DNA of 64,000 bases from an uncultured Clostridia bacterium (GCA_947629625.1 CANRES010000002.1:1652-65651); one strand, 5' to 3'; positions 25,837 to 60,273 are shown, counted from the stretch's first letter. Notes: generated by a model from the letters alone, not told the origin. Program-made: numbers and translations.

Positions 25837-25992
25837 ATGTTAAATGATGATATTTGTAAAAAAAGAGATGAATTAAACAAAAGTATATTAGATGGAAAAG
25901 ATTACAAAATAATTTATCAATTGAGCGTAGAACTAGATGAATTAATTGCAAAATACTATAAAGAAGAAAAAGAAACAGTAATTTCTATATAA
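25837..25992 (+). CDS. Spo0E-like sporulation regulatory protein (51 aa); not in the ORF track
   Basis: MLNDDICKKRDELNKSILDGKDYKIIYQLSVELDELIAKYYKEEKETVISI. RBS aaaggaagtgg. The SxELDxLIxxYY motif is typical of Spo0E-family aspartyl-phosphate phosphatases. Confidence 0.5.
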   Translation: MLNDDICKKRDELNKSILDGKDYKIIYQLSVELDELIAKYYKEEKETVISI

Positions 25993-26061: not shown

Positions 26062-26105
26062 AATTGAAGGAAAATATATAATAATTATATATTATGGAGG
26101 AAAAT

Positions 26106-27437
26106 ATGTTATTAGAATTTAAAATAAAAAATTACAAATCATTTTATAATGAAACTGTAATAAGCATGTTTGCAAATAGTGCAAAAAGAGATTATACAGA
26201 ACGTCTAATCAAAATAAATAAAACTAGTAATAAAAAAGTATTACCGTCAATGGTAATATATGGAGCAAACGCAAGTGGTAAAACTTCTATAATTTCAGCA
26301 ATAAATTTGCTTAAACAGATAATAATAAATGGAACAATAAAAAAACAAATAAAAAATAAAGAAATACAAGAATTGGATATATGCTCTTTTATACATGACA
26401 ATAAGAAAATGAATGAACCAATGCATTTAGAAATTACATTTAAAACAAAAAATTATATATATAATTATGCCTTAGATATAGTTGCAACATATTTAAAAAA
26501 GGATAGAAAAATAGTTAATGAAGAACTAAATATTGTAGAATTTAAAAACATTGGCACATCCATTAAAGAAACAAAAACTAATATTTTTAAGAGAAACGAA
26601 AATAGTGTAGAAATAAATAAAAACAAAGAAATTATGAATATATTAGAGAAAAAAGAAAATTTTATAGATGAAGCAAATAATTTAGAAAAAAGATTAAGCG
26701 AAAATTTAGATAAAGAAGATTTATTTTTAACAGCAGGATTTAAATCAATGATAAATCTAAAAATGTCAAATGATGTGTTAAATTGGTTTCAAGAACAACT
26801 AATAACAGTAGTTGATTTTAACGAAAAAGAACCCTTAGTAAATTTTAATGATGAAAATAGTGAAGACATAATTGTATATAGAAATAAAATGTTAGATAAA
26901 CTTATAAAAATTGCAGATTTTGGACCACAAGAATTTGGATATATCAAAGATAATAGTACAGGTAAATATACGTTAAATTCATTTTATACACCAAAGGGAT
27001 CTAAAGCAGGTATAATTATAAATTCTAAAACTATTGAATCAAAAGGTACACTAAAATTAATTGATTTTTGGATTACATTTATGGAATACTTTAAAAAAGG
27101 TGGAGTGTTTATACTAGATGAATTAGATTGTTCAATACATCCAGAATTAATAGGAGGAATTATAGATTTATTCAATAATAAAGATATTAACATTAATAAT
27201 TCTCAATTAATTTTTAATACTCATAACCCATTATATTTACAAAAAAGATTTTTTAGAAGAGATCAAATAATGTTTGTGGAAAAAGATGAAGAAACATATA
27301 TGAGTAGTACTTATAAATTATCAGATTTTGATTTAAGAAATGATGTTAATTATATGAAAAATTATTTTGAAGGAAAATTCGGAGCACTTCCTTTTATAGA
27401 TTTTGAGTCAACTCTTAATAAAGAAGGGGTTGATTAA
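26106..27437 (+). CDS. AAA_21/ABC-type ATPase, AbiLi-like abortive-infection component
   Basis: MLLEFKIKNYKSF..., Walker A GANASGKTS, Walker B FILDELD and H-loop near the C-terminus. 1-nt gap to the RloB-like partner. Confidence 0.7.
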   Translation: MLLEFKIKNYKSFYNETVISMFANSAKRDYTERLIKINKTSNKKVLPSMVIYGANASGKTSIISAINLLKQIIINGTIKKQIKNKEIQELDICSFIHDNKKMNEPMHLEITFKTKNYIYNYALDIVATYLKKDRKIVNEELNIVEFKNIGTSIKETKTNIFKRNENSVEINKNKEIMNILEKKENFIDEANNLEKRLSENLDKEDLFLTAGFKSMINLKMSNDVLNWFQEQLITVVDFNEKEPLVNFNDENSEDIIVYRNKMLDKLIKIADFGPQEFGYIKDNSTGKYTLNSFYTPKGSKAGIIINSKTIESKGTLKLIDFWITFMEYFKKGGVFILDELDCSIHPELIGGIIDLFNNKDININNSQLIFNTHNPLYLQKRFFRRDQIMFVEKDEETYMSSTYKLSDFDLRNDVNYMKNYFEGKFGALPFIDFESTLNKEGVD

Positions 27438-28013
27438 ATGATAAAAAGAGAATATAGATGTTTTTTTGAAGGGCAACAAGAAAAAATGTATTTTGAACAT
27501 GTAGCAAAGAAAATAAAGGAAGTTAATCCAATAGTAAGTATAAAATTTAAACCAGTAGAAAAATTAATTGTTTTAGAGAAAAGTTCAACAGATGTACCAA
27601 AAATAGCGGTATTTGATTATGATATGAATAAAATAGAATTTGAAAGAAAAATAAAGATATGCAGGAAAACTAATATTTTATATTCTAATCTTAATTTTGA
27701 TTTATGGTTATTATTACATAAAGTGAATTTTAGTAAAAATGTTCAACATAATGATGCATATAAAAATTTAATAATAAAAAATTTTAATTTAAGAGAAAAT
27801 TGCAATATAAAAACTAAAGCTAATATGGAAAAAATATTAGAGCAAATTGATATAAAAGATATAAAAAATGCAATAAAAAATTCTGAGCAAATAATGAATA
27901 ACAAATTAGAGGAAGATAAAATAACTATTAGAAAAAATTTCTATTATTATGAAAATCCTTCAATGAATATAAATGAATTTTTTAAAAGACTTTTTGAAGA
28001 AATAAAAGTATAA
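27438..28013 (+). CDS. RloB-like/AbiLii-like protein (Toprim-like), partner of the AAA_21 ATPase
   Basis: N-terminus EYRCFFEGQQEKMYFEH resembles the RloB CEGxxTExxYF motif; translationally coupled to the upstream ATPase. Confidence 0.6.
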   Translation: MIKREYRCFFEGQQEKMYFEHVAKKIKEVNPIVSIKFKPVEKLIVLEKSSTDVPKIAVFDYDMNKIEFERKIKICRKTNILYSNLNFDLWLLLHKVNFSKNVQHNDAYKNLIIKNFNLRENCNIKTKANMEKILEQIDIKDIKNAIKNSEQIMNNKLEEDKITIRKNFYYYENPSMNINEFFKRLFEEIKV

Positions 28014-28025
28014 TGTAGAAAAATG

Positions 28026-28054
28026 TTGAAAAATAAAAAATAATCATATATAAT
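28026..28054 (+). promoter_or_regulatory. Promoter TTGAAA-N17-TATAAT for pilin-like gene 1
   Basis: aaaatgTTGAAAaataaaaaataatcataTATAAT. Confidence 0.5.
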
Positions 28055-28086
28055 ATATTATAGAAAAAGTAAAGGAAGGAAGAAAC

Positions 28087-28464
28087 ATGGTAAAAAAAAT
28101 AAGCATATTTTTAATAGTAATAACATTATTATTAACTATGATACCAATAAAAACATATGCATCAGGTTTAGCAACAGAAATAATAGATCCATCAACATAT
28201 GGTGCAGGAATAGAATCAACTAGGGATTCATCACAAGTTTTGGCAATAGTAAACCCAATATTAGGTGCTGTATATTACATAGGAATTTTTATATCAGTTG
28301 GAGCACTTATATTAATAGGAATAAAATATATGATGGGAAGTATAGAAGAAAAAGCACAATATAAAGAAACCTTATTTCCATATTTAATAGGTGCAGTATT
28401 ACTATTTGGAGGAATAAATATACTAAGAATAATATATAACATAGTAATAAAAACGATAAAATAA
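28087..28464 (+). CDS. VirB2/TrbC-like candidate T4SS pilin, paralog 1 (signal peptide + 2 TM)
   Basis: Signal peptide ...TYASG, then TM1, then YMMGSIEEKAQYKETLFPY loop, then TM2. Confidence 0.55.
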   Translation: MVKKISIFLIVITLLLTMIPIKTYASGLATEIIDPSTYGAGIESTRDSSQVLAIVNPILGAVYYIGIFISVGALILIGIKYMMGSIEEKAQYKETLFPYLIGAVLLFGGINILRIIYNIVIKTIK

Positions 28465-28494
28465 AGTAATATAACTATATTTTTCAAAAAAATG

Positions 28495-28523
28495 TTGAAA
28501 TATTAAAAAAAATGTTGTATAAT
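28495..28523 (+). promoter_or_regulatory. Promoter TTGAAA-N17-TATAAT for pilin-like gene 2; same AAAATGTTGAAA -35 region as gene 1
   Basis: 12/12 identity of aaaatgttgaaa with 28020-28031. Confidence 0.5.
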
Positions 28524-28557
28524 TAATTAAAGTGTGATTTAATGGGAGATGAGATTA

Positions 28558-28959
28558 ATGAAAAAAAATTTAATAATACAAGTAATAACCATACTATTAA
28601 TAATCTCTACATTAATATTTTACATACCAACAATATCAAAAGCATCAATAATAGGAGATGCATTTGAAAATGGAGATGGCTTTTTACAAACACAACCAGA
28701 TCAAACTATTCAAGATATGGTTGATGATACCAAAATAATAAAAACATCAAAAGATATATATAATCTTTTAATGATAATTGCAATAGTAGTAGCATCAATA
28801 GTAGTACTAGTATTAGGAATACAATTTATGGCAGGTAGTGTAGAACAAAAAGCAAAAGTTAAAGAAATGCTAATGCCATTTGGAATAGGATGCGTAGTTA
28901 TATTTGGCTCACTAGTAATATGGCGAATAGTAATATCAGTAATGTCATCTATAATGTAA
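28558..28959 (+). CDS. VirB2/TrbC-like candidate pilin, paralog 2
   Basis: Same architecture: ...LGIQFMAGSVEQKAKVKEMLMPFGIG.... ATG at 28558 sits 9 nt after GGGAG; the track's 28549 start is too close to the RBS. Confidence 0.55.
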   Translation: MKKNLIIQVITILLIISTLIFYIPTISKASIIGDAFENGDGFLQTQPDQTIQDMVDDTKIIKTSKDIYNLLMIIAIVVASIVVLVLGIQFMAGSVEQKAKVKEMLMPFGIGCVVIFGSLVIWRIVISVMSSIM

Positions 28960-29032
28960 GTTTTTAATGTTTTCTTATTAGAGTATAAGAAAGTTAAAAT
29001 ATAAATAAAAGAATAAAAAAGGAGGAAAAAAT

Positions 29033-29452
29033 ATGAAAAAATCAGTAAAAATAATGTCTATATTAATGATAGCATTAATGGTAATATCTGTTGCATTACC
29101 TATATTTGCAACTACAATTGATGGAGTAGAAGTAAGACCAGATATGAGTTCAATACAAGGTTCAACAGCAGGTAATAGTTTATCAAAAGTATTAGGTGCA
29201 TTAAGATACATAGGAATATTTGCAGCAGTAGCAATTCTTATGGTACTTGGTATTAAATATATGATGGGAAGTGCAGAAGAAAAAGCAGAATATAAGAAAA
29301 CTTTAATACCTTATATGTTAGGTGCAATACTATTATTTGCAGCATCATTCATAGTAGGAATAATAGCAGATGCAACAAACAAAGTTACACAAACATCTTC
29401 ATTAATTGAAAGTGGAAAAGTTTTAGCATCAACAATAAAAGCATTAGTATAA
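29033..29452 (+). CDS. VirB2/TrbC-like candidate pilin, paralog 3
   Basis: ...LGIKYMMGSAEEKAEYKKTLIPYMLGAILLF...; RBS aaaggagg. Confidence 0.55.
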   Translation: MKKSVKIMSILMIALMVISVALPIFATTIDGVEVRPDMSSIQGSTAGNSLSKVLGALRYIGIFAAVAILMVLGIKYMMGSAEEKAEYKKTLIPYMLGAILLFAASFIVGIIADATNKVTQTSSLIESGKVLASTIKALV

Positions 29453-29461
29453 TATTAAAAG

Positions 29462-29495
29462 AAAGAAATTCCTTTATGGAATTTCTTTTTTTTTT
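29462..29495 (+). terminator. Rho-independent terminator after the pilin triplet
   Basis: gaaattcc-ttta-ggaatttc followed by T10. Confidence 0.75.
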
Positions 29496-29518
29496 GAAAA
29501 ATTTAACAAAACTACAAA

Positions 29519-29552
29519 AAAATACATTTAAAACAAAATGTATTTTTTTTTC
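29519..29552 (+). terminator. Second tandem terminator
   Basis: aatacattt-aaaacaa-aatgtatt followed by T9. Confidence 0.65.
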
Positions 29553-29560
29553 GATTTTTA

Positions 29561-29590
29561 TTTACAAATAACATTATTATTTGATATAAT
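29561..29590 (+). promoter_or_regulatory. Promoter TTTACA-N18-TGaTATAAT (extended -10) for the T4SS-like operon
   Basis: tttacaaataacattattatttgatataat. Confidence 0.5.
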
Positions 29591-29640
29591 ATATATGAGT
29601 TAAAATAGGTTTTTTATAAAAATACTAAGGAGGCGTTTAA

Positions 29641-29988
29641 ATGGGAACATATAACATACCTAGAAACGTTAAAGGAGAAGGAAGAATATTATATATATTT
29701 TCAAAAAAAGGTATCATATATACAATGGTAGGAGCATTAATAGGAACACCTTTTTATTTATTATTCAATTCAATAGGAATAACATTTGTAGGAGTAATAA
29801 TAATAATTCTTTTAGCATTAATAGGATTTATAATAGGAACATTTAAGGTACCAGAAACAACAGCATTTGAAATAACAAGAAAAACCGGCGGAGAAAATAT
29901 AGATGATGTAATAAAAAGAGCCTTCAAATTCTATAAAAATAGAAGAAGAATATATATCTATAAAGAGGAGGAAACAAAAGATGAGTAA
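29641..29988 (+). CDS. PrgI/VirB3-like small 2-TM conjugal transfer protein
   Basis: 115 aa with two central TMs; sits two genes upstream of the VirB4-like ATPase, as in pCF10 and Tn916-type loci. Confidence 0.55.
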   Translation: MGTYNIPRNVKGEGRILYIFSKKGIIYTMVGALIGTPFYLLFNSIGITFVGVIIIILLALIGFIIGTFKVPETTAFEITRKTGGENIDDVIKRAFKFYKNRRRIYIYKEEETKDE

Positions 29989-31273
29989 TAACGAATTAAC
30001 AAGTTTATTAACAACAATATTAATAGCAATGGTATTTGTATTATTTTTTCTAATAATGATATTTGTTTTCATAAAAATAAAAAATGATAAAAAGAAAAAG
30101 ATGCCGATGCAAACAGAAAATAAAGGAACAAATACAGCAACACAAGGATATAATAAACAATCAATTTTTAATTTTATGGAATTTGATAAAATTGAAGATA
30201 ATATGATAATTCAAAAAAACGGAACAAAATACTTAATGGTAGTTGAATGTCAGGGAGTAAATTATGATTTAATGTCAGGAATAGAAAAAACCTCAGTAGA
30301 AGAAGGCTTTCTACAATTTTTAAACACATTAAGACACCCAATACAAATATACACACAAACAAGAACAGTAAACTTAGAAAAAAGTATATCTACATATAAA
30401 TCTAGAATAGACCAACTAGAAGCAGATTTAAGAGCAAAAGAAGCAAATTATCAAGCAAAAGCAAAATCTGGAAGATATACAAAAGAACAACTAGATAAAG
30501 AATTTTATGAACTTACGAAACAAAGAAATCTATATGAATATGGAAGAGATGTAATCTTTAATACAGAAAGAATGAGTACAAATAAAAACGTACTAAACAA
30601 AAAATACTATATAATAATTCCATACTATCCAGAAGATTTAGGAAATAACAATTTTGATAAAGAAGAAATCAAAAACATAGCATTTTCTGAACTATACACA
30701 AGAGCACAATCAGTTATAAGAACGTTATCAGCATGTGGAATAAACGGAAAAATATTAGGCTCAAACTTACTTGCAGAACTATTATATGTAGCATATAATC
30801 GTGATGAAGAAGAAATATATGGACTTGATAAAGCAATAGCAGCAGGATATGACGAACTATATTCAACAGCACCAGATGTACTAGATAAGAAAATGAAGGA
30901 ATTAGATAAACAAATTGAACAAAAAGCAATGGATATGGCAAATGATGCAGTAATTCAAGCAAAATCAGATAAACAAAAGAGAATTGAAGAAAAAGAAAAA
31001 TCAATGAACGATTTGATATCACAAATGGCAAAATTAATTATAGAAGAAAACAAAACATTTGTAGGAGAAGATATTGCAGAAGCAGCAGTTGATAAAATAG
31101 ATGGTACAGAAGAACAAGAAGATATCGAAGAAATTGAAGAAGAAGAGGAAATAGCACCACCTAAAAAACGAGGAAGAAAAAAAGCAAGCACAGAAAATAC
31201 AGAAGAAGGAGGAAAAGTAAATGATGTCAAAGAAAAAAAGAAAACAACAAGAAGAACTACAAAGACAGCTTGA
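29981..31273 (+). CDS. Membrane-anchored coiled-coil protein of unknown function, with an acidic stretch and a basic KKRGRKK tail
   Basis: N-terminal TM (aa 8-32), long coiled-coil-like segments, C-terminal EEIEEEEEIAPPKKRGRKKAS.... Overlaps the virB4-like start by 53 nt. Confidence 0.5.
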   Translation: MSNNELTSLLTTILIAMVFVLFFLIMIFVFIKIKNDKKKKMPMQTENKGTNTATQGYNKQSIFNFMEFDKIEDNMIIQKNGTKYLMVVECQGVNYDLMSGIEKTSVEEGFLQFLNTLRHPIQIYTQTRTVNLEKSISTYKSRIDQLEADLRAKEANYQAKAKSGRYTKEQLDKEFYELTKQRNLYEYGRDVIFNTERMSTNKNVLNKKYYIIIPYYPEDLGNNNFDKEEIKNIAFSELYTRAQSVIRTLSACGINGKILGSNLLAELLYVAYNRDEEEIYGLDKAIAAGYDELYSTAPDVLDKKMKELDKQIEQKAMDMANDAVIQAKSDKQKRIEEKEKSMNDLISQMAKLIIEENKTFVGEDIAEAAVDKIDGTEEQEDIEEIEEEEEIAPPKKRGRKKASTENTEEGGKVNDVKEKKKTTRRTTKTA

Positions 31274-33188
31274 AACAAGAAATAGTATAGACATTAGCAT
31301 ACTAAAAAAGAAAACAATTAAAGATTTAATTGCACCATCTGGAATAGACGCTTCAAATATAGACCATTTAAAAATAATATCAAATACAAATAGATTTGCA
31401 AGAAGTTTCTTTGTATCAACACTACCTAGAATGTGTACGTTCCCAGAATTGTTTAGAGATATGTATATGTTTGGAGATATAAACACATCAATATATATAA
31501 ACCCAATACCAGAAGCAAGATCTCAAAACGAATTAAATAGAGTAATAAATGAACTAGAAACAGAAAGAATTGTAGCAGCAGATAGAGGAAATATAAATAG
31601 AGAAAGTACAGTATCTCAAAAAAGATTAGAAGCAGAAGAATTAAGAGACGAAATTGCAGCAGGATTTAATAAATTATTTGAAGCATCAATTGTTGCAACA
31701 CTATTTGCATACAGCCTAGAAGATTTGGACAAATACACAAAACTATTAGCAACAGAAATGTCAAAATCATTAGTTGGAGTAAAAAGTGCTTGGGGAATGC
31801 AAGAAGAAGCATTTAAATCTAATTTACCATTAATGAATGACCAAATAAAGAAAACACATACATTTGATAGACGTTCAATGGGAACAGTATTCCCATTCAC
31901 AACATCAGAAGTTGGACATCCAACAGGAATACCATTAGGATTTAATAAACAAACTGGAGTACCAATATTATTTGATAACTTCCACTCATCACTAACAAAC
32001 TATAACATGGTTATATTTGCAAAATCTGGTGCTGGTAAATCTGTTACAATGAAAACTTTAATATCAAGGTCAGCAGTATTAATGGGAATAGAAAGTTTAG
32101 CACTAGATGCAGAAGGTGAATATTCAATAGTTGCTGAAAGTTTAGGAGGAATTAATGTTGTATTAAGTCCAAATTCAAAAACAGTAATAAATTTATTTGA
32201 TATTGAATTAGAAACAGCAAAAGATGAAATAACAGGTAAAGAAAGACAAGTTTTAAATGTAGAAAATAAAGTAGAAGACGTAACACAAGCGCTACTTACA
32301 ATGGCAAGAGGAAGTACAAGAAGTCAAGAAGTAAATGAACTTACAAAACAAATAATTGCAGAAGCAGTAGCAGAAGAATATGCAAGATTAGGAATTACAA
32401 GTGATCCAAATAGCTTATATGTACAAAACAATACATTTGATGGAAATGCATTATATAAAGAAAAGAAAGAAATGCCTACAATTGGTAGTTGGTATAAACT
32501 AATAGAAAGAAAAGCAAAAGAAAATACAAATAAAGATTACAGTTTTCATTATAGTTACTTATTAAAAGTTATGAAACAATACATAAGAGCATATGATGGA
32601 CAAATGGCATATTTTGATGGACAATCTACATTTGATTTATTAGAGGGAGCACCTTTTATAAATCTAGATATATCACAACTAGAAGAAAGATTTGCAAGAC
32701 CATTAGCACAACAAATTCTATTATCATGGATTTGGGAAAAATATGTTAAGAAAAACAGTGAAGATAGAACAAAGGCTTCTAAAAAAAGAGTAATAGTAGA
32801 CGAAGCGTGGATGCTATTACCTTACCCAGAAGCAGTAGATTTCTTAAATACAATGGCTAGACGTGCAAGAAAAAGAAATGTATCATTAGCAATAATTTCA
32901 CAAAGATTTCAAGATTTTTATGAAAAACCAGAAGCACAAGCAGTATTAACATCTTCTGATACAAAACTATTTTTAGCACAAGATAAATCAGAAATACAAT
33001 ATTTAAAAGAAGTATTTAAACTAAGTGAAGGAGAAGCAGGATTTTTAGTAACTTGTTTAAAAGGAGAAGGATTATTAAAAGTTGGTGCAGATACAGCAAT
33101 ATTGCAAATTACACCAACAAAGAAGGAATTTGAATTTGTTGAAACAAATTTAAACAAATTGGTAGGAATGCGAAAAGCAAGAGAATAG
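31221..33188 (+). CDS. VirB4-family T4SS ATPase (TraE/TrsE/TcpF-like)
   Basis: Walker A FAKSGAGKSVTMKT, Walker B RVIVDEAWML. 655 aa, close to the size of the Gram-positive VirB4 homologues as I recall them (pIP501 TraE). Confidence 0.8.
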   Translation: MMSKKKRKQQEELQRQLETRNSIDISILKKKTIKDLIAPSGIDASNIDHLKIISNTNRFARSFFVSTLPRMCTFPELFRDMYMFGDINTSIYINPIPEARSQNELNRVINELETERIVAADRGNINRESTVSQKRLEAEELRDEIAAGFNKLFEASIVATLFAYSLEDLDKYTKLLATEMSKSLVGVKSAWGMQEEAFKSNLPLMNDQIKKTHTFDRRSMGTVFPFTTSEVGHPTGIPLGFNKQTGVPILFDNFHSSLTNYNMVIFAKSGAGKSVTMKTLISRSAVLMGIESLALDAEGEYSIVAESLGGINVVLSPNSKTVINLFDIELETAKDEITGKERQVLNVENKVEDVTQALLTMARGSTRSQEVNELTKQIIAEAVAEEYARLGITSDPNSLYVQNNTFDGNALYKEKKEMPTIGSWYKLIERKAKENTNKDYSFHYSYLLKVMKQYIRAYDGQMAYFDGQSTFDLLEGAPFINLDISQLEERFARPLAQQILLSWIWEKYVKKNSEDRTKASKKRVIVDEAWMLLPYPEAVDFLNTMARRARKRNVSLAIISQRFQDFYEKPEAQAVLTSSDTKLFLAQDKSEIQYLKEVFKLSEGEAGFLVTCLKGEGLLKVGADTAILQITPTKKEFEFVETNLNKLVGMRKARE

Positions 33189-33205
33189 TAAGGAGGAAAA
33201 GCCAA

Positions 33206-36200
33206 ATGAAGCTTTTTACTAAGAAAAATTTAATTCAAAAGATGACAATAGTTTTGGTAATTCTAATGCTATTTAATTTTATAATGCCAAATTTCGTAAG
33301 AGCAGAAACAGCGATAGAAACAGCAGGAAAAGTAATTTTCACACCAGTTAGGGGTTTCTTAGTAATGTGTGGAGATGGTCTTATGACTGGGCTACAATAT
33401 TTACTAAAAACAAACGAAAAAGCAGTAATACCATATAGTGATCAAATAGAAGAAAGTAAGCAATTTATTGGGGAAGAAGATGATAGAAATTATTTTGAAT
33501 ATTATCTGGGAGATATTGTACTAGATGTATATGGTAATGCTACGGGTCAAGATAAACCTAATTTTAAATATACACCAAAATTTATTTTTGAAAATAAAAT
33601 AAAATCATTTGATATAAATTTTATTAGCCCATCAAGAGCAAACACTAATGGAGAAGCAAAAGAAAATGAAAATAGTGAAGAAAATCAATCAAGTTATTCT
33701 GATGAAACATGGTATGAAGATTATGTATATACAGTAGAAAAATGCCAAGAAAAATATAATACTTCAACTGATGAAACAGAAAAAGGTGTAGCAAGAACAG
33801 TATTACGTCGTTTAGGAGCATGGGATGATACAACAAATAATGTAGGTTATACAGATGAAACCGCTAAAAATGCTGTAAGTGAACTTTCACAAAGATATTA
33901 TAATGGTGCAACTATGTATGAAATGTTAGGAGCAGATCCAACCTCAAAAGATGCAACAATGAAAAAATATGTTGAATTTCTAGATAGTGGAATAGGTACA
34001 TATGTAATTGGAACTGTTGCTGAATATCATAAAGTAGCAGGAAATGAAACAAAAGAAACATTAGATTATGATGCAATAGCACCAGTAAATGCACTACATG
34101 ATATGATAGCAACATGGTATAAAATATTAAGAAATATTGCATTAATATTTTTACTATCAATTTTAGTATATATAGGAATTAGAATAATACTATCAAGTAC
34201 AGCAGCAGATAATGCAAAATATAAAAAAATGCTTGTAGATTGGGTAGTTGCATTATGTATTTTATTTGCATTACATTATATAATGGCAGGTATAAATGGG
34301 GCAGTTAATATGGTTGTAGATGCATTTACACCATCAAATAGTTCTGATACTGATGCTATATTTGGAAATGTAAGAACACAATTAATGTCTGAAAATTTAT
34401 CTGACCAACTTTTTTATACAGTATTATATCTAGTATTGGTTATCTATACATTAGTATTTACATTTTATTATTTGAAAAGGGTTGTTTATGCAGCATTTTT
34501 AACATTAATTGCGCCATTAGTAGCATTAACTTACCCATTAGATAGAATGGGTGATGGAAAATCACAAGCATTTAATATGTGGTTAAAGGAATACATTGCG
34601 AATGTAATTATTCAACCAGTGCATTTATTGATATATACTGTATTAATAGGTTCTGTACTTTCATTATCAGTAAAAAATCCATTATATGCAATTGTTGTAA
34701 TGGGAGCAATGATGCCAGCAGAAAAATTCATTAGAGAGATGTTTGGATTAAATAGCCAAAAAGGATTAAGCCCAGCAGGAAGCTTTGCAGGTGGAGCACT
34801 TGCTGCATCAGCAATGAATAAATTATTATCAAAACCACCTAGAATGCATCCTCGTGGTGAACATGGTAAATCAAAAGATAATGGCAGTGAAAACGAAAAT
34901 GAAACAAAACGAAATAAAATTAAAATGAAAGATAGTATGTCTGATATAGCAAATTCAATAGTAGGACAAGATGTGCCAGATGTAACCAATAATAGAATAA
35001 AAGATAACACAAATAGCACAGAAAATAAACCAGATGTAGATAATGGAGATTTTCCAGATAGTAGAGAACTTGATAATCAAGAGCAAGCAAAAAATGAAGA
35101 TATATACTTACCAAATAATAAAGATACAAGTAATATGGATGAAATAGCTTCACCATCACAAGAAGAAATTGATGCAGCTTTAAATCCACCTATGGATGAT
35201 GATAGAGTTACTATGGATGAAATAGCACCACCATCACAAGAAGAAATTAATGCGACTTTAAATTCACCTATGGATAAAAATACAAGTACTATGGATGAAA
35301 TAGCACCACCACCACAAGAAGAAATTGATGCAACTTTAAATCCACCTATGCATAATAACAGACAAATCAACAGTCAAGAAGATAAATTACAGCAAGGAAA
35401 CAATAACTTGAACATGCCTAATAAAGCAACTATACCAATGAGTAAAGCAGAACAAAAACAAGCAAAGAAAACATTGAAGAAACAAAAAAGAGCTGCTCAA
35501 TATGCAGCATCAAAAAGATATTATACTAAATTAACTAAACAAAGATTAAGAAAATTAGGAAAATTAGGTAAAGGTTTAGCAAGAGGAGCATTAAAAACAG
35601 CAGGTGCTGCAACGGGAATAGCATTAGGTGCAACAGCAGGAATAGTAGGAGGAATTGCTACTGGTGATGTAGGAAATGCATTAAAATTTACTGGAGCTGG
35701 TGCATTAGCAGGTGCAAAATTTGGTTCTGTAATAGGTGATGATGTTTATAATATTGGAGCAAGAGGTGGATCTGGTGTAGCGAGTGCAATTAATAGTCAA
35801 AAAGAAATGAAGCAAATGTGGCAAAACGACTTATACAATACTAATGAAGAATATAGAAAAAAAGTGGATCAAAAAGAAGCAAAGAAATTAATAAAATCAG
35901 CAGAAACAACAGCAATGATACAACAAAGATTTGGAAGGGGTAAAGTAAAAGAAGCACAAAAGGCTATGATGGAATATAATGAACGAGGAATAGATAATGT
36001 TGATACAATGCTTAACTGTTTTGGACTAGAACAAGGAATAGATAGACATGGAAATAGATTTACTGAACCGGGTAGTATCGATCGTAATCAAGCAATTATG
36101 GCAGGAAGAATTGCAGAACAATATGATGTAAATAATGCTTCTGGCAGAAAATCTAGTAAAGATGAATTAGAGCATCAATTAGCAAATAGCGTATATAATG

Positions 36201-36448
36201 GATCTTTTGATGGTAAAGAATATACAATAACAAGAGACCAAGCATTTGATAGAGTAAAAGGAAATGTAAATAATATTATGAAACTAGCGGATATGGCACA
36301 AGGAATTGATACAAAACATGCAGGCTTAGCAGATCAATTAGAAGAATCAAATAAAGCTAAACAAAAACGTACTAGAGCAAAAGAAGTTAGAGAGAGAATG
36401 GAAGTTGAAAATGAAGTTGCAAGAGAAAATAACAACAAAAACAACTAA
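33206..36448 (+). CDS. VirB6/TrbL-like polytopic membrane protein with a large N-terminal extracytoplasmic domain, three tandem 26-aa Pro-rich repeats, a Gly/Ala-zipper segment and a C-terminal soluble domain
   Basis: Signal/TM at the N-terminus, about 6 TMs at aa 300-510, repeats MDEIAPPSQEEIDATLNPPM x3, glycine zipper GAATGIALGATAGIVGGIATG. Confidence 0.6.
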   Translation: MKLFTKKNLIQKMTIVLVILMLFNFIMPNFVRAETAIETAGKVIFTPVRGFLVMCGDGLMTGLQYLLKTNEKAVIPYSDQIEESKQFIGEEDDRNYFEYYLGDIVLDVYGNATGQDKPNFKYTPKFIFENKIKSFDINFISPSRANTNGEAKENENSEENQSSYSDETWYEDYVYTVEKCQEKYNTSTDETEKGVARTVLRRLGAWDDTTNNVGYTDETAKNAVSELSQRYYNGATMYEMLGADPTSKDATMKKYVEFLDSGIGTYVIGTVAEYHKVAGNETKETLDYDAIAPVNALHDMIATWYKILRNIALIFLLSILVYIGIRIILSSTAADNAKYKKMLVDWVVALCILFALHYIMAGINGAVNMVVDAFTPSNSSDTDAIFGNVRTQLMSENLSDQLFYTVLYLVLVIYTLVFTFYYLKRVVYAAFLTLIAPLVALTYPLDRMGDGKSQAFNMWLKEYIANVIIQPVHLLIYTVLIGSVLSLSVKNPLYAIVVMGAMMPAEKFIREMFGLNSQKGLSPAGSFAGGALAASAMNKLLSKPPRMHPRGEHGKSKDNGSENENETKRNKIKMKDSMSDIANSIVGQDVPDVTNNRIKDNTNSTENKPDVDNGDFPDSRELDNQEQAKNEDIYLPNNKDTSNMDEIASPSQEEIDAALNPPMDDDRVTMDEIAPPSQEEINATLNSPMDKNTSTMDEIAPPPQEEIDATLNPPMHNNRQINSQEDKLQQGNNNLNMPNKATIPMSKAEQKQAKKTLKKQKRAAQYAASKRYYTKLTKQRLRKLGKLGKGLARGALKTAGAATGIALGATAGIVGGIATGDVGNALKFTGAGALAGAKFGSVIGDDVYNIGARGGSGVASAINSQKEMKQMWQNDLYNTNEEYRKKVDQKEAKKLIKSAETTAMIQQRFGRGKVKEAQKAMMEYNERGIDNVDTMLNCFGLEQGIDRHGNRFTEPGSIDRNQAIMAGRIAEQYDVNNASGRKSSKDELEHQLANSVYNGSFDGKEYTITRDQAFDRVKGNVNNIMKLADMAQGIDTKHAGLADQLEESNKAKQKRTRAKEVRERMEVENEVARENNNKNN
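35135..35368 (+). repeat. 3 x 78-bp in-frame tandem repeat inside the VirB6-like gene
   Basis: atggatgaaatagc(t/a)(t/c)cacca(t/c)cacaagaagaaatt... occurs at 35135, 35213 and 35291. Confidence 0.8.
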
Positions 36449-36478
36449 AAATAATAACTAAATTTAATGGGGGCAAAA

Positions 36479-36979
36479 ATGTTAGGAACACATCCAATTG
36501 TTAGATATTTAAATCAAAATAGAAAACAAATATTTACAGTAATTATAGCAGTAGCAATATTTTTCCTAATATTAAGAATTTTAAATAATATAGAAGAAAG
36601 AAAAATAAAACAAGAACAAGAAAAAACAAATACATATTATACAGAAATAACAAATGCAAACGAACATGCAAAAATAATAAAACAATTTCTAGAATATTGT
36701 AAGAGTGGAGATGCAAGTAATGCATATAAATTACTTGCATCCAAAACAAAAGAAGAAAAATATCAAAATCAAACTGAATTTAACAATAACTATATTTTAA
36801 AATTCTTTTCAGAAAACAAAAACTACACAATAACATACAATTCACAAAATAATAATCAATATTACTATATTATAAAAATAACTAATGACATAATATCAGC
36901 GGGAAAAGTTGATAAAGAACCAGTAATACAAGATTTTATAATTACTAATGAAAATGGAGAAGACAAAATTATAATTTAA
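36479..36979 (+). CDS. Membrane-anchored single NTF2-like domain protein (VirB8/TcpC-like candidate)
   Basis: N-terminal TM; ...CKSGDASNAYKLLASKTKEEKYQNQTEF... is the NTF2/SnoaL-like pattern shared with the 38.5-39.8 kb protein. Confidence 0.45.
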   Translation: MLGTHPIVRYLNQNRKQIFTVIIAVAIFFLILRILNNIEERKIKQEQEKTNTYYTEITNANEHAKIIKQFLEYCKSGDASNAYKLLASKTKEEKYQNQTEFNNNYILKFFSENKNYTITYNSQNNNQYYYIIKITNDIISAGKVDKEPVIQDFIITNENGEDKIII

Positions 36980-37130
36980 TTTTTAATAAATAAGGGAGAG
37001 GTTGCATTAATATTATGCAACCTAATTTTAAAAATAATATTTATATATGTATTCTACATTGCAAAAAAATAAAAATTTATATCAAGAGTATAAATATAAG
37101 TATTAAAAAGGAAGACAAGAAGGTGAAAAA

Positions 37131-38477
37131 ATGGACTTTTTAGAACAAGCAAAAAGTGCATTCAAAAATGCATATTTAACAGGAATAAAAAAGAAATTAA
37201 TAATGTTAGGAATAGGAATACTAGTATTTATAATATTAATAACAATACTAGTAGGTGTAATATTAGTAGAAGACGAAGAAAGCCAAATTGGAAATTATAA
37301 TAGTTTAGCATCATACTCATTTTGGTGGCCAATAGGAAGTAGAGAAACAACATTAGATGCAGATGGAAATGAATACGCAATTAAAGAGCCATCAGCAATA
37401 ACTATAAGTAGTGATTACAAAATAAGAAATCAAGAAAGACCAGACCATGACGGAATAGATATAAATAGTGATGATGCTCAAGATGGAGAAAAAAAAGGAG
37501 AAGGTTACCATTATATTATTGCATCAAAAGATGGAACAGTAATTACATCTCATTTTTCAGGTCAAAATGGTGTAGAAGGTTCAGCAGGAGAATACATAGC
37601 AATAGACCATGGAGATGGATTTGTTACAAAATATATGCATATGTATGAAGGAAGTCGTACAGTAGAGGTAGGAGATACAGTAAAACAGGGACAAATTATT
37701 GGTATTATGGGAAATACAGGCTATTCTACAGGAGCACACTTACACTTTCAAATAGAACTTGATGGGGAACCAGTAGATCCTTTGCAATATGTAAGTGCAG
37801 AATTCCCAAGAGGTGGATCAAGCATTGATCCATTTACAACAAGTATTTCAAGGGAAGACTTTATACAATGTATTCAACAATATTCACAAGAAGCAAATTA
37901 TCAAATGAATATGGCACAATATGCAGGAGAATTTTATGATATATGCACAGAAAAAGGAGTAAGTGCTGAATTAGCATTTGCACACTCATGTTTAGAAACA
38001 GAATTTGGAACATATTTTATAGCACAAAATAACTATTTTGGTTATGCAGCATATAATAGTAATCCAAATTCAGCAACAAGTTATTCAACACCACAAGAAT
38101 CAATAAGAAGTTATTGTGATTGGGTAATAAACAATGCAACAATGGACACAAGTGCATATCAAGCAAACCTTCAAAGAGCGGAAGAATTATCACCATATAA
38201 TTCTATGCTAGTAGGCACACCAGAAACAAATGTATATGTATTATATATTAGATATGCTCAACTAGACGCTACACATGAAGGAGACTATGCAACAATAGAT
38301 CGTAACAATATAAATAGTGTTAAATATTTAGGAACATATTATTTCACATATTATATGTATGGAGAAATGTGTAACCATTTACCGGGAGAACCTACATCAG
38401 ATCAAGAAAAGGCAGATTATGCAGTATATTCTACAAATAAAAGAATAGAAATAATAAATAGTATATTTGGAAAATAA
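37131..38477 (+). CDS. Membrane-anchored bifunctional peptidoglycan hydrolase: M23 peptidase + glucosaminidase/FlgJ-like domain (functional VirB1 analogue)
   Basis: M23 motifs HDGIDI and HLHFQIELDGEPVDP; C-terminal ...ELAFAHSCLETEFG... is glucosaminidase-like; N-terminal TM. Confidence 0.7.
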   Translation: MDFLEQAKSAFKNAYLTGIKKKLIMLGIGILVFIILITILVGVILVEDEESQIGNYNSLASYSFWWPIGSRETTLDADGNEYAIKEPSAITISSDYKIRNQERPDHDGIDINSDDAQDGEKKGEGYHYIIASKDGTVITSHFSGQNGVEGSAGEYIAIDHGDGFVTKYMHMYEGSRTVEVGDTVKQGQIIGIMGNTGYSTGAHLHFQIELDGEPVDPLQYVSAEFPRGGSSIDPFTTSISREDFIQCIQQYSQEANYQMNMAQYAGEFYDICTEKGVSAELAFAHSCLETEFGTYFIAQNNYFGYAAYNSNPNSATSYSTPQESIRSYCDWVINNATMDTSAYQANLQRAEELSPYNSMLVGTPETNVYVLYIRYAQLDATHEGDYATIDRNNINSVKYLGTYYFTYYMYGEMCNHLPGEPTSDQEKADYAVYSTNKRIEIINSIFGK

Positions 38478-38493
38478 ATTAGAGGTGGGGGAA

Positions 38494-39837
38494 TTGAAAA
38501 AAATAAAAATACTCATAATTATTACTAGTATAATTTCTATATTACTTATATTTGCAATTATTATATTAAATATTAATAGTAAGGGAGAAGAAAATAATAA
38601 TAATTTAAATATTAACAATAACATAAGTAATATGATAGGTAATACAACAAGTAATATAGTAAATAATGTACAAGGTAATTTAATAAATAATAACGTACAA
38701 GAAAATAACATAAATATAGGGAGTACAGAAATAAAACCACAGCCTGTAAAATCAAGAGAAGATTTTTACACAGTAAAATCTTGTATTGATGAATATATTA
38801 ATTATATTGTAGCAAACAATAATGAAGCATTATATAACATATTAGATAAATATTATCTTGACAAAAATAATATAGATAAAAATAATATTTTAGAAAAATT
38901 AGTAAAAATAAATACATACCAAGTATTTAATCCAGAAAGAATGAATTATGTTGAATTAAATAACAAACAAATATATATGGTTTATGGAAAAATTAGAGAG
39001 GATAAACTAAATGAAAGAGCAAATGAGGTTGATTTTAATTTAACAGTAACAATAAATAAACAAAACAATAGTTATTCAATAATACCAGAAATAATTAATG
39101 AAACAACATCATATTCTTTAATTGGAAATAACACAAGAACTAAATATAATTTATATTCAACTGTTAATATAGATAATAAAACAATGGCAAATATTTATTT
39201 TGTAGATTATAAAACAAAATTACTATATAATCTTCAAAACGCATACGATTTATTAGATGAAAATTATTCTAAAAAAAGATTTAATGGTTATTCAAATTTT
39301 TATCAGTATGTACAAGACAACATAAATAAAATCAATAGAGCAAACTTAACAAAATATTCAATAACAAATGAAGGAAATAATACAATTTTTACATGTATAG
39401 ATCAATATAATAATTATTATATATTTGAAGAAACTGCAATAATGCAATATAAGGTTATGTTAGATAATTACACTATTGACAGTAATGAATTTGTAACAAA
39501 ATATAGTTCAGCATCATTTCAAGAAAAAATGGAATTAAATATACAAAAATTCATAAAAATGATAAATTCAAAAGATTATGAAAATGCTTATAATCTTTTA
39601 AATACAGAATTTAAAAATAATAATTTTGCAGACTTACAACAATTTATAAACTATGTAACATCATCATTTTATAACTACAATGATGTAAAATTTAATACTT
39701 TTTCAACACAAGGTGATATTGGAATATATGAAATTAATATTAATGGAGTAGTAAATGATATTGATGTTACACAAATAAAAACTATCATAATGAAACTAGG
39801 CACTGGAACAGATTTTGAAATATCATTTGATATATAG
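38494..39837 (+). CDS. Membrane-anchored Asn-rich protein with two tandem NTF2-like domains (TcpC/VirB8-like candidate)
   Basis: TM at the N-terminus; two ...(E/N)AY(N)(I/L)L... domains (NNNEALYNILDKYY..., KDYENAYNLLNTEFK...). TTG at 38494 after agaggtggggg is preferred over the track's overlapping 38467 start. Confidence 0.45.
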   Translation: MKKIKILIIITSIISILLIFAIIILNINSKGEENNNNLNINNNISNMIGNTTSNIVNNVQGNLINNNVQENNINIGSTEIKPQPVKSREDFYTVKSCIDEYINYIVANNNEALYNILDKYYLDKNNIDKNNILEKLVKINTYQVFNPERMNYVELNNKQIYMVYGKIREDKLNERANEVDFNLTVTINKQNNSYSIIPEIINETTSYSLIGNNTRTKYNLYSTVNIDNKTMANIYFVDYKTKLLYNLQNAYDLLDENYSKKRFNGYSNFYQYVQDNINKINRANLTKYSITNEGNNTIFTCIDQYNNYYIFEETAIMQYKVMLDNYTIDSNEFVTKYSSASFQEKMELNIQKFIKMINSKDYENAYNLLNTEFKNNNFADLQQFINYVTSSFYNYNDVKFNTFSTQGDIGIYEININGVVNDIDVTQIKTIIMKLGTGTDFEISFDI

Positions 39838-39846
39838 GGAGGAAAA

Positions 39847-40443
39847 ATGGAAGAAAAAAATATTAATGAAATAAATAAAGAAATATTACAATTCAAAAAA
39901 GATATAGAAGAAAATATAAAACAAGCAAATAATCAAAATCAAGAAAACAACTCAGAGGAAAACGAGGAATTAGAACTTACAGAAATATTAAATATAACAT
40001 ATTATGATGAATTTGATTTTAAAACGAAATTTAAGGATGTAATATTAATGTTAGAAGATGTATATATTGTAGAATTAGAAAAATCAAATTCTACAACTTA
40101 TGAAATATACACAAAAGATGCAATTCATAAAATAGCACAAATAGATATAGAAGGAAAAATAACATTTATAGATAGAGCAATAGAAGATAATACAACAATA
40201 GAAGAAATGAAAAAATTAAATGAAGATAAAAAAACTATATCATATACAAAAGAAGAATTAGACGAATTAGAAGAAGGTTCAAAAAAGGAAATAGATAAAG
40301 AAAAAAATGAAGAAGGAACAAATCCAGATGTGAACTTAAATGATATATCAGATTCTGCAAGAGAGAAAAAAGAAGAAATGGACAAAGAAAATGACAGAGA
40401 AAGAACATTAGATGAAAACGTAAGAAAATACTATGAAAATTAA
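39847..40443 (+). CDS. Highly acidic hypothetical protein (198 aa), last gene of the operon
   Basis: E/D/N-rich; RBS gggaggaaaaatg. Confidence 0.45.
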   Translation: MEEKNINEINKEILQFKKDIEENIKQANNQNQENNSEENEELELTEILNITYYDEFDFKTKFKDVILMLEDVYIVELEKSNSTTYEIYTKDAIHKIAQIDIEGKITFIDRAIEDNTTIEEMKKLNEDKKTISYTKEELDELEEGSKKEIDKEKNEEGTNPDVNLNDISDSAREKKEEMDKENDRERTLDENVRKYYEN

Positions 40444-40460
40444 ATATATAGTAATAAAAA

Positions 40461-40499
40461 TCACCTTTAAAAATATAATTTAAAAGGTGATTTTTTTTT
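40461..40499 (+). terminator. Rho-independent terminator ending the T4SS-like operon
   Basis: tcacctttaaa...tttaaaaggtga followed by T9. Confidence 0.75.
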
Positions 40500-60179: not shown

Positions 60180-60273
60180 CAAAAAAATGGAAAAAAATCG
60201 CAAGAAAAAATTTACATAATTGTATATTTATGATATAATATACATAGATGTGAAAAAGGGGGAGGTAAAAATA

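Follow-up and report, generated by a model that had tools for sequence, protein, structure and literature searches.

A VirB2-type pilin array and type IV secretion locus, probably domesticated, in the chromosome of uncultured gut Clostridia

Gene content of the locus

The system described here is a type IV secretion system (T4SS)-like locus at positions 28026-40499 of a 64,000-nucleotide stretch of DNA from an uncultured Clostridia bacterium (GCA_947629625.1, CANRES010000002.1:1652-65651); this whole stretch is referred to as the window. All open reading frames (ORFs) of the locus lie on the + strand. Three pilin genes (28087-29452) are followed by an eight-gene operon (29641-40443), and these, together with an AbiL pair (26094-28013), make up the interval between the second of two M16 peptidase genes (M16b) and dac. 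Judged by its sequence, the gene set appears to be a complete monoderm T4SS membrane and wall set with VirB2-type pilins, lacking conjugation functions in cis. The original prediction, made from the DNA of the window, had given the same ORF coordinates and strand and had proposed a FATA-type channel set, and it holds on both counts.

For comparison, VirB4 was used to scan one genome per GTDB species, which returned at least 587 loci with a close VirB4 relative. The best 80 of these matches (L001-L080) are termed the related loci below, and identity statistics were taken over 42 genomes. All 80 come from uncultured gut metagenome-assembled genomes (MAGs) named “Clostridia bacterium” or “Clostridium sp.”, including CAG:452 and CAG:575, and two of them belong to complete MAG chromosomes of 1.57 and 1.70 Mb. 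The clade is presumably the GTDB order TANB77, judging from the placement of CAG-452-like genomes; the literature searched does not give the lineage of CAG-452 or CAG-575.

The pilin array and its regulatory sites

The VirB2/TrbC-type paralogs comprise 125 amino acids (aa) for pilin 1 (28087-28464), 136 aa for pilin 2 (28549-28959) and 139 aa for pilin 3 (29033-29452). Their earlier designation as VirB2/TrbC-like agrees with matches to the Pfam families TrbC/VirB2 and T4SS_pilin, at E-values from 4e-6 to 4e-9. Pilin 3 scores above the cutoffs of both families (T4SS_pilin 36.7 bits, TrbC 36.6 bits) and pilin 2 above that of T4SS_pilin (28.2 bits, cutoff 26.6). The two scores of pilin 1 (TrbC E 4e-6, T4SS_pilin E 2e-5) are slightly under the gathering score, and this protein also matches the NCBIfam family of Mbov_0395 pilin-like proteins (E 7.5e-5). 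All three share the same topology, a signal peptide and a hairpin of two transmembrane (TM) segments with a conserved charged loop, at pairwise identities of 30-47%. There are between one and six pilin genes per related locus, three being the commonest number (42/60 loci).

Putative promoters, recognized as consensus matches, precede pilin 1 (28026-28054, TTGAAA-17-TATAAT) and pilin 2 (28495-28523), each agreeing at 11/12 consensus positions. The region upstream of pilin 1 (28002-28063) is duplicated upstream of pilin 2 (28471-28532). The array is followed by an intrinsic terminator or attenuator at 29462-29495, with an 11-bp stem AAAGAAATTCC / GGAATTTCTTT and a T run, and a promoter-like site of the extended -10 kind (29561-29590, TTTACA-18-TATAAT with an upstream TG) stands before the operon. 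An intrinsic terminator at 40458-40499, read off the sequence as the stem ATCACCTTTAAA / TTTAAAGGTGAT and T9, closes the operon. Strong terminators had been expected on both sides of the locus. The downstream one is present; the interval between AbiL and pilin 1 has no terminator and holds only the promoter-like site at 28026-28054, the remaining hairpin being the one after pilin 3.

The eight-gene operon and its split VirB4 motor

The first gene of the operon (29641-29988) encodes a VirB3 homologue of the PrgI family, 115 aa long with two TM segments. The VirB3/PrgI assignment made originally stands on a Pfam PrgI match above the cutoff (31.5 bits, cutoff 27), and the gene was detected in 78/80 related loci. 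The second gene (29981-31273) had been described as a 430-aa coiled-coil protein. The ORF is as described, but its identity had gone unrecognized: the protein, here termed p430, is by hhalign and by its position a membrane-anchored VirB4 N-terminal-domain protein of the TrsD type (“TraC-like”, PF26593). It has a coiled-coil insert, and its C-terminal tail is basic. A profile of its 46-sequence family aligns with residues 6-204 of two fused VirB4 relatives of 829 and 822 aa (hhalign 97%, E 1e-11 and 1e-10, respectively), and relatives of p430 carry the newer Pfam family PF26593 TraC-like. The protein matches the gene at the equivalent position of Clostridium plasmids (BLASTP E 4e-27) and stands at the TrsD position of plasmid pSK41. 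Direct homology to TrsD was also considered; hhalign to the single TrsD sequence was weak (E 0.03), and the assignment rests on the fused VirB4 relatives. A fold search with the p430 model (pLDDT 65) gave no significant match, chains of R388 TrwK/VirB4 recurring at E 0.16-0.84, and neither p430 nor the 456-aa protein described below matched the Protein Data Bank (PDB) by sequence. The C-terminus of p430 (31150-31273) is a conserved, strongly basic cytoplasmic tail reminiscent of an AT-hook, reading ...KRRGR...RRTTKTA in the family consensus and PPKKRGRKK...RRTTKTA in the window.

The p430 gene overlaps the start of virB4 (31221-33188) by 53 nt. The encoded ATPase of 655 aa, identified by Pfam, NCBIfam and PDB matches, has intact Walker A and B motifs; the earlier VirB4 assignment holds. 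Its best NCBIfam match is conju_CD1110 (215 bits, E 2e-63, under the cutoff of 325), followed here by the Mbov_0397 VirB4 family (E 1e-55, under the equivalog cutoff); in the PDB it matches the Thermoanaerobacter VirB4 structure 4AG5 (E 8e-28). It aligns to full-length family models from about position 175 onward only, so it is without the usual N-domain. This domain is supplied by p430, and the motor therefore consists of two proteins, an N-domain protein anchored in the membrane and a soluble ATPase. A split VirB4 with a separate N-domain protein has been described for the TrsD subclass of the mating-pair formation (MPF) class FATA (PMC12102498).

The fourth gene (33206-36448) encodes a polytopic membrane protein of 1080 aa that would correspond to VirB6. 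A TM core (residues 281-520) is conserved, the N-terminal insert is lineage-specific and the C-terminal region is variable. The latter contains a 26-aa repeat, encoded by a 78-bp x 3.1 tandem repeat at 35118-35355 (score 364, 85% matches). In line with the VirB6-like label first given to it, the protein has weak matches to pLS20_p028 (NCBIfam, E 2e-7) and to TrsL/TrbL (tblastn, in the window and 22 related loci), and it is similar to its Clostridium plasmid counterparts at E 3e-22. A weak Pfam T4SS_pilin match recurs on one TM hairpin of these VirB6-like proteins (residues 296-355 in the window; also in L037 and in the sister-lineage locus L084), a hint at a common fold or origin of the pilins and part of VirB6.

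The two NTF2/VirB8-like proteins foreseen in the sequence are supported by a predicted fold and by hhalign. The larger, of 456 aa (38467-39837), is modelled by AlphaFold2 (pLDDT 85.8) as a VirB8-like protein with an N-terminal TM segment, a disordered linker and three tandem NTF2-like domains. A Foldseek search of the PDB with this model returned tandem-NTF2 proteins, including the VirB8-like OrfG of ICESt3 (8s7l/7pkw, E 4e-3 to 1e-2), and TcpC (3ub1) at E 0.05. The smaller is a bitopic protein of 170 aa (36467-36979), likewise of the VirB8 class, that aligns with the third NTF2 domain of the 456-aa protein (hhalign 96%, E 4.6e-9); its homologues in relatives are about 316 aa long. Between them lies the cell-wall hydrolase (37131-38477), a putative VirB1 analogue in which Pfam detects the expected M23 endopeptidase (E 4e-24) and glucosaminidase (E 3.5e-9) domains. 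In relatives this slot is occupied by a protein of 865-1263 aa with other domains. The last gene (39847-40443) encodes an acidic, fast-evolving and apparently cytoplasmic protein of 198 aa, without a match in Pfam, NCBIfam or PHROG, that is detectable in 6/80 related loci at E 1e-5. A phage or phage-plasmid origin was considered and set aside, PHROGs giving only a generic ATPase match for VirB4.

Clade-wide conservation and vertical inheritance

The related loci share the order M16a-M16b-(variable spacer)-pilins-PrgI-N-domain protein-VirB4-VirB6-like-NTF2-(extra gene)-large hydrolase-NTF2-dac, site and order being judged identical for all loci with flanks that extend as far as the neighbouring genes. 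The comparison of related genomes that had been recommended as a check therefore finds the same operon between the M16 peptidases and dac in the 80 examined. A full VirB4 ORF of 648-690 aa is present in 80/80 loci, and the N-domain protein is complete in 78/78 complete loci. The suggestion that the locus is maintained, based at first on its intact ORFs, is borne out by this intact VirB4 across species.

The mean pairwise identity of VirB4 is 86%, with 388/655 columns invariant, and 42/42 sequences have the same Walker A (AKSGAGKS) and Walker B (DEAW) motifs. The adjacent M16 peptidases have a mean pairwise identity of 61-68%. Distances within the T4SS correlate with those of the peptidases at r = 0.88, compared with 0.85 for peptidase against peptidase (Mantel 0/2000). 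The fast-evolving parts are the pilins (~40%), the outer regions of VirB6, the NTF2 proteins (~30%) and the hydrolase, whose domains are swapped between M23+glucosaminidase in the window and GDSL+glucosaminidase+NlpC/P60 in L037. Compared with the housekeeping genes next to it, the VirB4 motor is much more strongly conserved, and the surface-exposed parts diverge fast. The cluster is vertically inherited and under strong purifying selection.

Upon clustering at 50%, the VirB4s of the whole clade form a single cluster. Next in similarity come one sister lineage (L084) at 65%, and then proteins of at most 43% identity. The L084 operon (GCA_037193465.1, JBANSJ010004695.1) consists of three TrbC pilins, a 122-aa PrgI-position ORF, a 483-aa N-domain protein, VirB4, a VirB6-like protein and a 1171-aa M23 hydrolase, and it lies in a different chromosomal context, with pgi, TraX, SSB and an M23 gene.

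Search for features of a mobile element

Seeds for type IV coupling proteins (T4CPs), MobA/MobL and MobV relaxases and tyrosine integrases were used to look for mobility functions. Neither the window nor the 1.49 Mb surrounding the 80 related loci gave a MobA/MobL or MobV match, and the 80 T4CP loci described below gave none either. No tyrosine-integrase seed match was obtained; serine and DDE recombinases were not searched for. Neither att-like flanking direct repeats nor oriT-like repeats are present in the window, and the only repeats in the locus are the pilin paralogy, the duplicated pilin promoter and the VirB6 coding repeat. The window has no tRNA and no Rfam family, and the T4SS cluster has the same composition as its flanks, with no compositional anomaly. 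The original statement that relaxase, integrase and att repeats are missing is thus upheld for the window by empty seed and repeat searches.

The locus might have been an integrative and conjugative element (ICE), or a decaying remnant of one, that lies between core genes by chance. Its genes are of conjugative ancestry and it is adjoined by a defence pair, AbiL (26094-28013; AbiLi AAA_21 ATPase and AbiLii RloB, PADLOC). The spacer between M16b and the pilins varies in relatives from about 0.5 to 3.5 kb with variable cargo, and so behaves as an insertion hotspot. Against this, the insertion context and gene order are the same across 80 species genomes, VirB4 is intact in every one, and the cluster co-diverges with its flanks; no integrase or relaxase seed match, att repeat or anomaly of composition accompanies it. 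On these grounds an ICE remnant, one of the options raised at the outset, is very unlikely and essentially excluded: the locus is neither an ICE nor a remnant. AbiL itself, situated between M16b and the pilin array, is absent in 80/80 related loci. It is a private insertion of the window’s lineage and not core, so that of the core-gene flanks first proposed the M16 peptidases and dac are retained across the related loci and AbiL is not.

A coupling protein at another chromosomal site

No T4CP seed match was found in the window or in 79/80 related loci. The exception, L072, carries a TrsK-like T4CP gene (L072:3-1749) directly upstream of M16a, adjoining the T4SS region. When the protein it encodes was used to scan metagenome contigs, at least 531 relatives were found, the best 80 of which (L086-L165) are 75-81% identical and lie on contigs of 24-33% GC and up to 966 kb. 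The protein is a bona fide VirD4 (Pfam T4SS-DNA_transf 263 bits; NCBIfam conju_CD1115 431 bits, cutoff 250). Its usual context is chromosomal and conserved: murF - 177-aa protein - small ORF - 160-aa membrane ORF - T4CP - sbcD - sbcC ... prfA, pcrA. In L087, tilS and ftsH lie just upstream of the T4CP and are 63% and 81.5% identical to those of the window, which places this contig in the window’s clade.

In the same clade, the CD1115-family VirD4 is apparently encoded by a core gene that is conserved and in most cases not linked to the T4SS. T4CP and T4SS occur in the same bacterium in L072; their co-occurrence across the clade is strongly suggested, and the window’s own genome probably has the gene too. 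A search for a long contig joining the T4CP to the T4SS yielded short contigs only. The absence of a coupling protein claimed at first is accordingly true of the window and probably not of the genome. The gap between ftsH and crp in the window contains no T4CP remnant; by eye, it holds rpsU, a DUF378-like ORF and an ATP-cone (NrdR/NrdD-like) ORF.

In 64/73 assessable loci (L086-L165 and L072) the T4CP frame is broken inside the Walker A strand. The upstream ORF ends ...NVLVVG-R-x-R-x-W-stop, and the ATPase resumes in the +1 frame as GSGSGKS. The DNA at the break reads GTn GGA C GGn TCn GGn, with one extra C, and eight loci without the extra C have a single ORF reading NVLVVGGSGSGKS. Several different synonymous haplotypes flank the break, and it comes from many independent assemblies, so a sequencing error is not its cause. 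In the zero frame, the codon read at the break is CGG. This codon accounts for 0 of 378 Arg codons in the 12,826 codons of the window, and in L127 (3,106 codons) it occurs at the T4CP break site only. Because CGG is otherwise unused, a +1 shift at a “hungry” codon is a reasonable hypothesis. The break is a candidate programmed +1 ribosomal frameshift, and the shifted product is predicted to span ...NVLVVGGSGSGK....

Two further observations concern the surroundings of the T4CP. The 177-aa protein encoded directly upstream of it (L127:8667-9966 and equivalents in L086-L165) is present in 73/79 loci at about 79% identity and has no family match; it and the next small ORF are possible T4CP partners of an unrecognized kind. 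On one 12-kb metagenome contig (L114:5252-11798), T4CP-sbcD is followed by a VirB6-like gene, apparently frameshifted, and a small NTF2-like gene.

The T4CP also bears on whether the apparatus exports DNA. The T4SS, a VirD4 acting in trans and a relaxase elsewhere, possibly of an unrecognized family, could together donate chromosomal or mobilizable DNA. Every recognizable component comes from conjugative families, a bona fide conjugative-type CD1115 T4CP is conserved, and the closest annotated relatives reside on large Clostridium plasmids, one with a T4CP nearby. The searches with MobA/MobL and MobV relaxase seeds were empty, however, in the window, the roughly 1.5 Mb around the T4SS loci and the 80 T4CP loci, and there are no oriT-like or att repeats. 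In addition, vertical retention at the order level, with a motor conserved like the top housekeeping proteins, is unusual for donor functions. DNA donation is considered unlikely, though it stands first among the alternatives in likelihood. For the original option of a machine driven in trans by a distant module, the coupling-protein half gains direct support, as a CD1115 VirD4 is conserved at another chromosomal site; no relaxase was found.

Comparison with known systems

By gene families and gene order, the system conforms to a monoderm MPF-FATA T4SS of the Trs-like kind. Its VirB4 is related to those of the FATA class, a placement taken from profile and structure matches, and PrgI/TrsC, TrsD, VirB6-like, hydrolase and VirB8-like genes lie near virB4. 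Of what defines a conjugative system in the sense of CONJScan, the regions searched hold no MobA/MobL or MobV relaxase, no tyrosine integrase and no att repeats, and site and order do not vary among the related loci with flanks long enough to compare. A coupling protein is absent from the window and 79/80 loci; a CD1115-family VirD4 occurs elsewhere in low-GC gut contigs of apparently the same clade.

The order of pSK41, TrsB-TrsC-TrsD-TrsE-TrsF-TrsG, is the same as that of the locus. pSK41/pGO1 Trs (and pIP501 Tra) resemble it in a pilin-like TrsB of the CagC family, TrsC (VirB3), TrsD, a membrane protein and a wall hydrolase. TrsE is a DUF87-type VirB4 of about 670 aa without an N-domain, like the VirB4 of the window, and the T4CP of the clade is of the same CD1115 family as TrsK. 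pSK41 differs in being a plasmid that has a relaxase, oriT, a topoisomerase and SSB, and its T4CP gene is part of the operon. The sequences have little similarity, and the locus has three pilins, a larger N-domain protein with a coiled-coil insert and a very large VirB6.

Among annotated replicons, the nearest relatives are found on large Clostridium plasmids (C. beijerinckii p1, NZ_CP107023.1; C. botulinum p12/29, NZ_KT897275.1), whose VirB4s are 41-43% identical. Their gene order is also that of the locus: a small pilin-position ORF, a PrgI-position ORF, the N-domain protein, VirB4, VirB6 and hydrolase. The pilin-position ORF has no detectable similarity to the pilins of the window. These systems differ in being plasmid-borne and in having a C39-type hydrolase, and C. 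beijerinckii has a 1001-aa T4CP and recombinases nearby. Further VirB4 relatives occur on many Bacillus and Paenibacillus megaplasmids at ~30%. As the closest annotated relatives are plasmid systems, a conjugative ancestry of the locus is indicated.

The closest biological analogue is the T4SS of Patescibacteria (Southlakia epibionticum SEML1_0006-0019; Wang et al. 2023, PMC10633639; Quinonero-Coronel et al. 2025, PMC12102498). It has been described as chromosomal, MPF-FATA-derived and relaxase-less, with TrsD, PrgI, VirB4 and VirB6, arrays of VirB2 and a T4CP far from virB4, and as essential in S. epibionticum, where it is needed for epibiotic growth (PMC12102498, PMC10633639, PMC12857230). 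Both systems are chromosomal, vertically inherited, lineage-wide and MPF-FATA-derived, in reduced-genome host-associated lineages. They have in common a TrsD-type VirB4 N-domain protein, PrgI/VirB3, VirB4, VirB6 and a divergent VirB2-like pilin array. M23 or lysozyme-type hydrolases lie by virB4, there is no relaxase nearby, the T4CP is distant, and the neighbourhood is of an origin-proximal type (here inferred). Unlike Patescibacteria, the locus belongs to sporulating Firmicutes (spoIIGA and sigE are in the window) with a thick-wall-type gene set and complete MAG chromosomes of 1.6-1.7 Mb, and its VirB8-like NTF2 proteins are clear, whereas such proteins are rarely detected in the Candidate Phyla Radiation (CPR). 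No Patescibacteria sequence was identifiable among the VirB4 matches, in which names are mostly missing.

According to a 2025 review, the T4SS of Patescibacteria is the only monoderm one with VirB2-type pilins and needed for growth, and the first essential T4SS (PMC12857230). Pilin-like proteins had already been flagged in pSK41 (TrsB, “CagC family”, RefSeq/PGAP) and in mycoplasma ICEs (NCBIfam), so the rule that Gram-positives have no pilins was already softening. The T4SS of the Streptococcus suis 89K island resembles the locus in its Gram-positive VirB1, B3, B4, B6, B8 and D4 set and in a use other than plasmid transfer (PMC12857230). It differs as a mobile pathogenicity island of some strains without VirB2 pilins; the locus is clade-wide and immobile and has a pilin array.

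Helicobacter pylori ComB and archaeal Ced/Ted share with the locus a set of VirB2, B3, B4, B6 and B8 type, the lack of a relaxase and exaptation from conjugation. They suggest an uptake machine, in which the pilus captures material and VirB4-driven retraction imports it. Neither relaxase nor T4CP is encoded in cis, the retained parts are those kept by import systems, the lineage is genome-reduced and uncultured (PMC11680825), and the same idea has already been proposed for Patescibacteria. VirB4 also has weak NCBIfam matches to CedB and CedD. These matches (E 1e-4 to 4e-6, 21-26 bits) are marginal and far under the cutoffs of 600-700. Moreover, known import T4SSs are without a coupling protein (PMC12857230), and in this clade one is conserved at 75-84% identity; ComB belongs to diderms and includes B7, B9 and B10; and no competence or recombination genes are linked to the locus in the window. 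Uptake is therefore an improbable reading, placed just after DNA donation.

Proposed function

The reading preferred here, to which a probability of about 0.6 is given, is that the locus encodes a domesticated T4SS/pilus apparatus, fixed in the chromosome of a large low-GC clade of uncultured gut Clostridia, that would carry out contact-dependent macromolecule transfer with neighbours and not its own transfer. Of the functions first suggested, a conjugation-independent apparatus remains the best overall description. By analogy with established T4SS biology, the hydrolase would open the cell wall and VirB3, B4, B6 and B8 would form the membrane translocon. VirB4 would extract pilins from the membrane to build a conjugative-type pilus. 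The trans-encoded CD1115-family VirD4, a coupling ATPase usually made via the putative +1 frameshift, would recruit substrates and feed the channel. Retention of the coupling protein makes it somewhat likelier that proteins or nucleoprotein are exported than that material is imported. A fast-diverging, domain-swapping surface set against an almost frozen motor is the pattern expected of a machine touching variable partners.

The TANB77 lineage has been described as uncultured, with a reduced genome, without many growth traits and with a conserved Tad pilus (PMC11680825). In Saccharibacteria, type IV pilus and T4SS are both essential (PMC12857230). An uncultured, genome-reduced lineage that keeps a Tad pilus, and the Saccharibacterial need for both structures, favour contact-dependent exchange.

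Several points count against this interpretation. The reading is drawn from gene sequences of uncultured organisms, and no sequence feature indicates a substrate or a transport direction. The VirB6 assignment rests on weak matches. The partnership of T4CP and T4SS is deduced from their joint occurrence in the clade and from the single genome (L072) in which they are adjacent; the L114 arrangement may reflect a rearranged T4SS or a chimeric assembly. The T4SS of S. epibionticum is essential but its T4CP homologue is not (PMC12102498), so that a conserved T4CP need not serve the channel. A relaxase elsewhere is possible, as the seeds were narrow and the search covered the surroundings of the loci rather than whole genomes.

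The apparatus could also be a pilus-only organelle, in which a VirB2-type pilus serves adhesion to mucus, food particles or cells, nothing is transported and the T4CP is an unrelated orphan. Biogenesis of the Agrobacterium T-pilus is independent of VirD4, and the cis-encoded set of the locus matches what T-pilus biogenesis requires. The pilin genes are served by strong promoter-like sites and a terminator of their own, which would suit subunits made in large amounts, and the pilins diversify fast and vary in copy number. The conserved T4CP argues instead for a substrate, and for adhesion a conserved Tad pilus is already available to the clade (PMC11680825). The conservation of VirB4 and the kept VirB6- and VirB8-like parts do not discriminate between the readings. 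An adhesin of this kind is doubtful, and less probable than either donation or uptake.

If contact-dependent transfer is the function, a bolder version may be put forward tentatively. The clade, probably TANB77, which is reported to predict the response to checkpoint immunotherapy, would be cell-dependent like Saccharibacteria, and the T4SS would be essential for contact exchange with a partner bacterium or host, alongside the Tad pilus. It would be the first Firmicutes counterpart of the Patescibacteria system, with its coupling ATPase dosed by a programmed +1 frameshift at the unused CGG codon.

The finding probably amounts to more than an orphan T4SS, namely a clade-wide domesticated machine with a trans-acting, frameshift-controlled coupling protein, whose function is deduced from its genes. 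A machine similar to that of Patescibacteria would be a fixed part of the chromosome in an order-level group of Firmicutes that is abundant in human and animal guts and has no cultured member, with the pilin array, the split VirB4, the lack of a relaxase in cis and the distant T4CP as parallel features. If the T4SS mediates partner dependence, this would explain resistance to cultivation and point to co-culture strategies, and conjugation machinery turned into a lifestyle organ would not be confined to ultra-small bacteria. Candidate antigens exposed to the host include the pilins and surface parts; a different (Tad) pilus protein of TANB77 has been linked to the response to checkpoint immunotherapy (PMC11680825). 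The +1 frame break of the T4CP is a separate case of possible recoding. No description of the locus was found in the searchable literature, nor any account of a T4SS in TANB77; the “conserved pilin” of published work on that order belongs to the Tad (type IVc) pilus cluster, which is another locus (PMC11680825).

Setting of the locus and other features of the window

The window has a GC content of about 26%. Its core genes form the set of a sporulating Firmicute, nearly all on the + strand and with positive GC skew: metG, gdpP-rplI-dnaB, tilS, ftsH, the two M16 peptidases, dac, murA, ftsQ/A/Z, spoIIGA-sigE and mraZ-rsmH-ftsL-pbp. Since gdpP-rplI-dnaB lies 12 kb upstream of the locus, the neighbourhood would be of the origin-proximal type, the origin position being inferred from these genes. 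A 51-codon ORF at 25837-25992, judged by eye, resembles a Spo0E-like aspartyl-phosphate phosphatase (...SVELDELIAKYY...).

Frameshifts elsewhere in the window, mentioned in the original prediction, are real. The murA gene (43349-44606) is frameshifted at the catalytic SYPGGC motif, at about 43700, so that SYPRRM-stop is read there. Either the assembly contains an indel or the gene is a pseudogene, a second murA presumably being present elsewhere. Upstream of a glycosyl-hydrolase/phosphorylase-like ORF of 1870 aa (1975-7587), two open segments in other frames (2-646 and 594-1889) suggest further frameshifts in the assembly or the gene. An Rpn/PD-(D/E)XK “transposase-like” nuclease gene on the - strand (12635-13568) is split into ORFs of 116 and 199 aa. 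At the 3′ end, an ORF of at least 1255 codons with a signal peptide (60234-64000) leaves the window and probably encodes a large surface protein.

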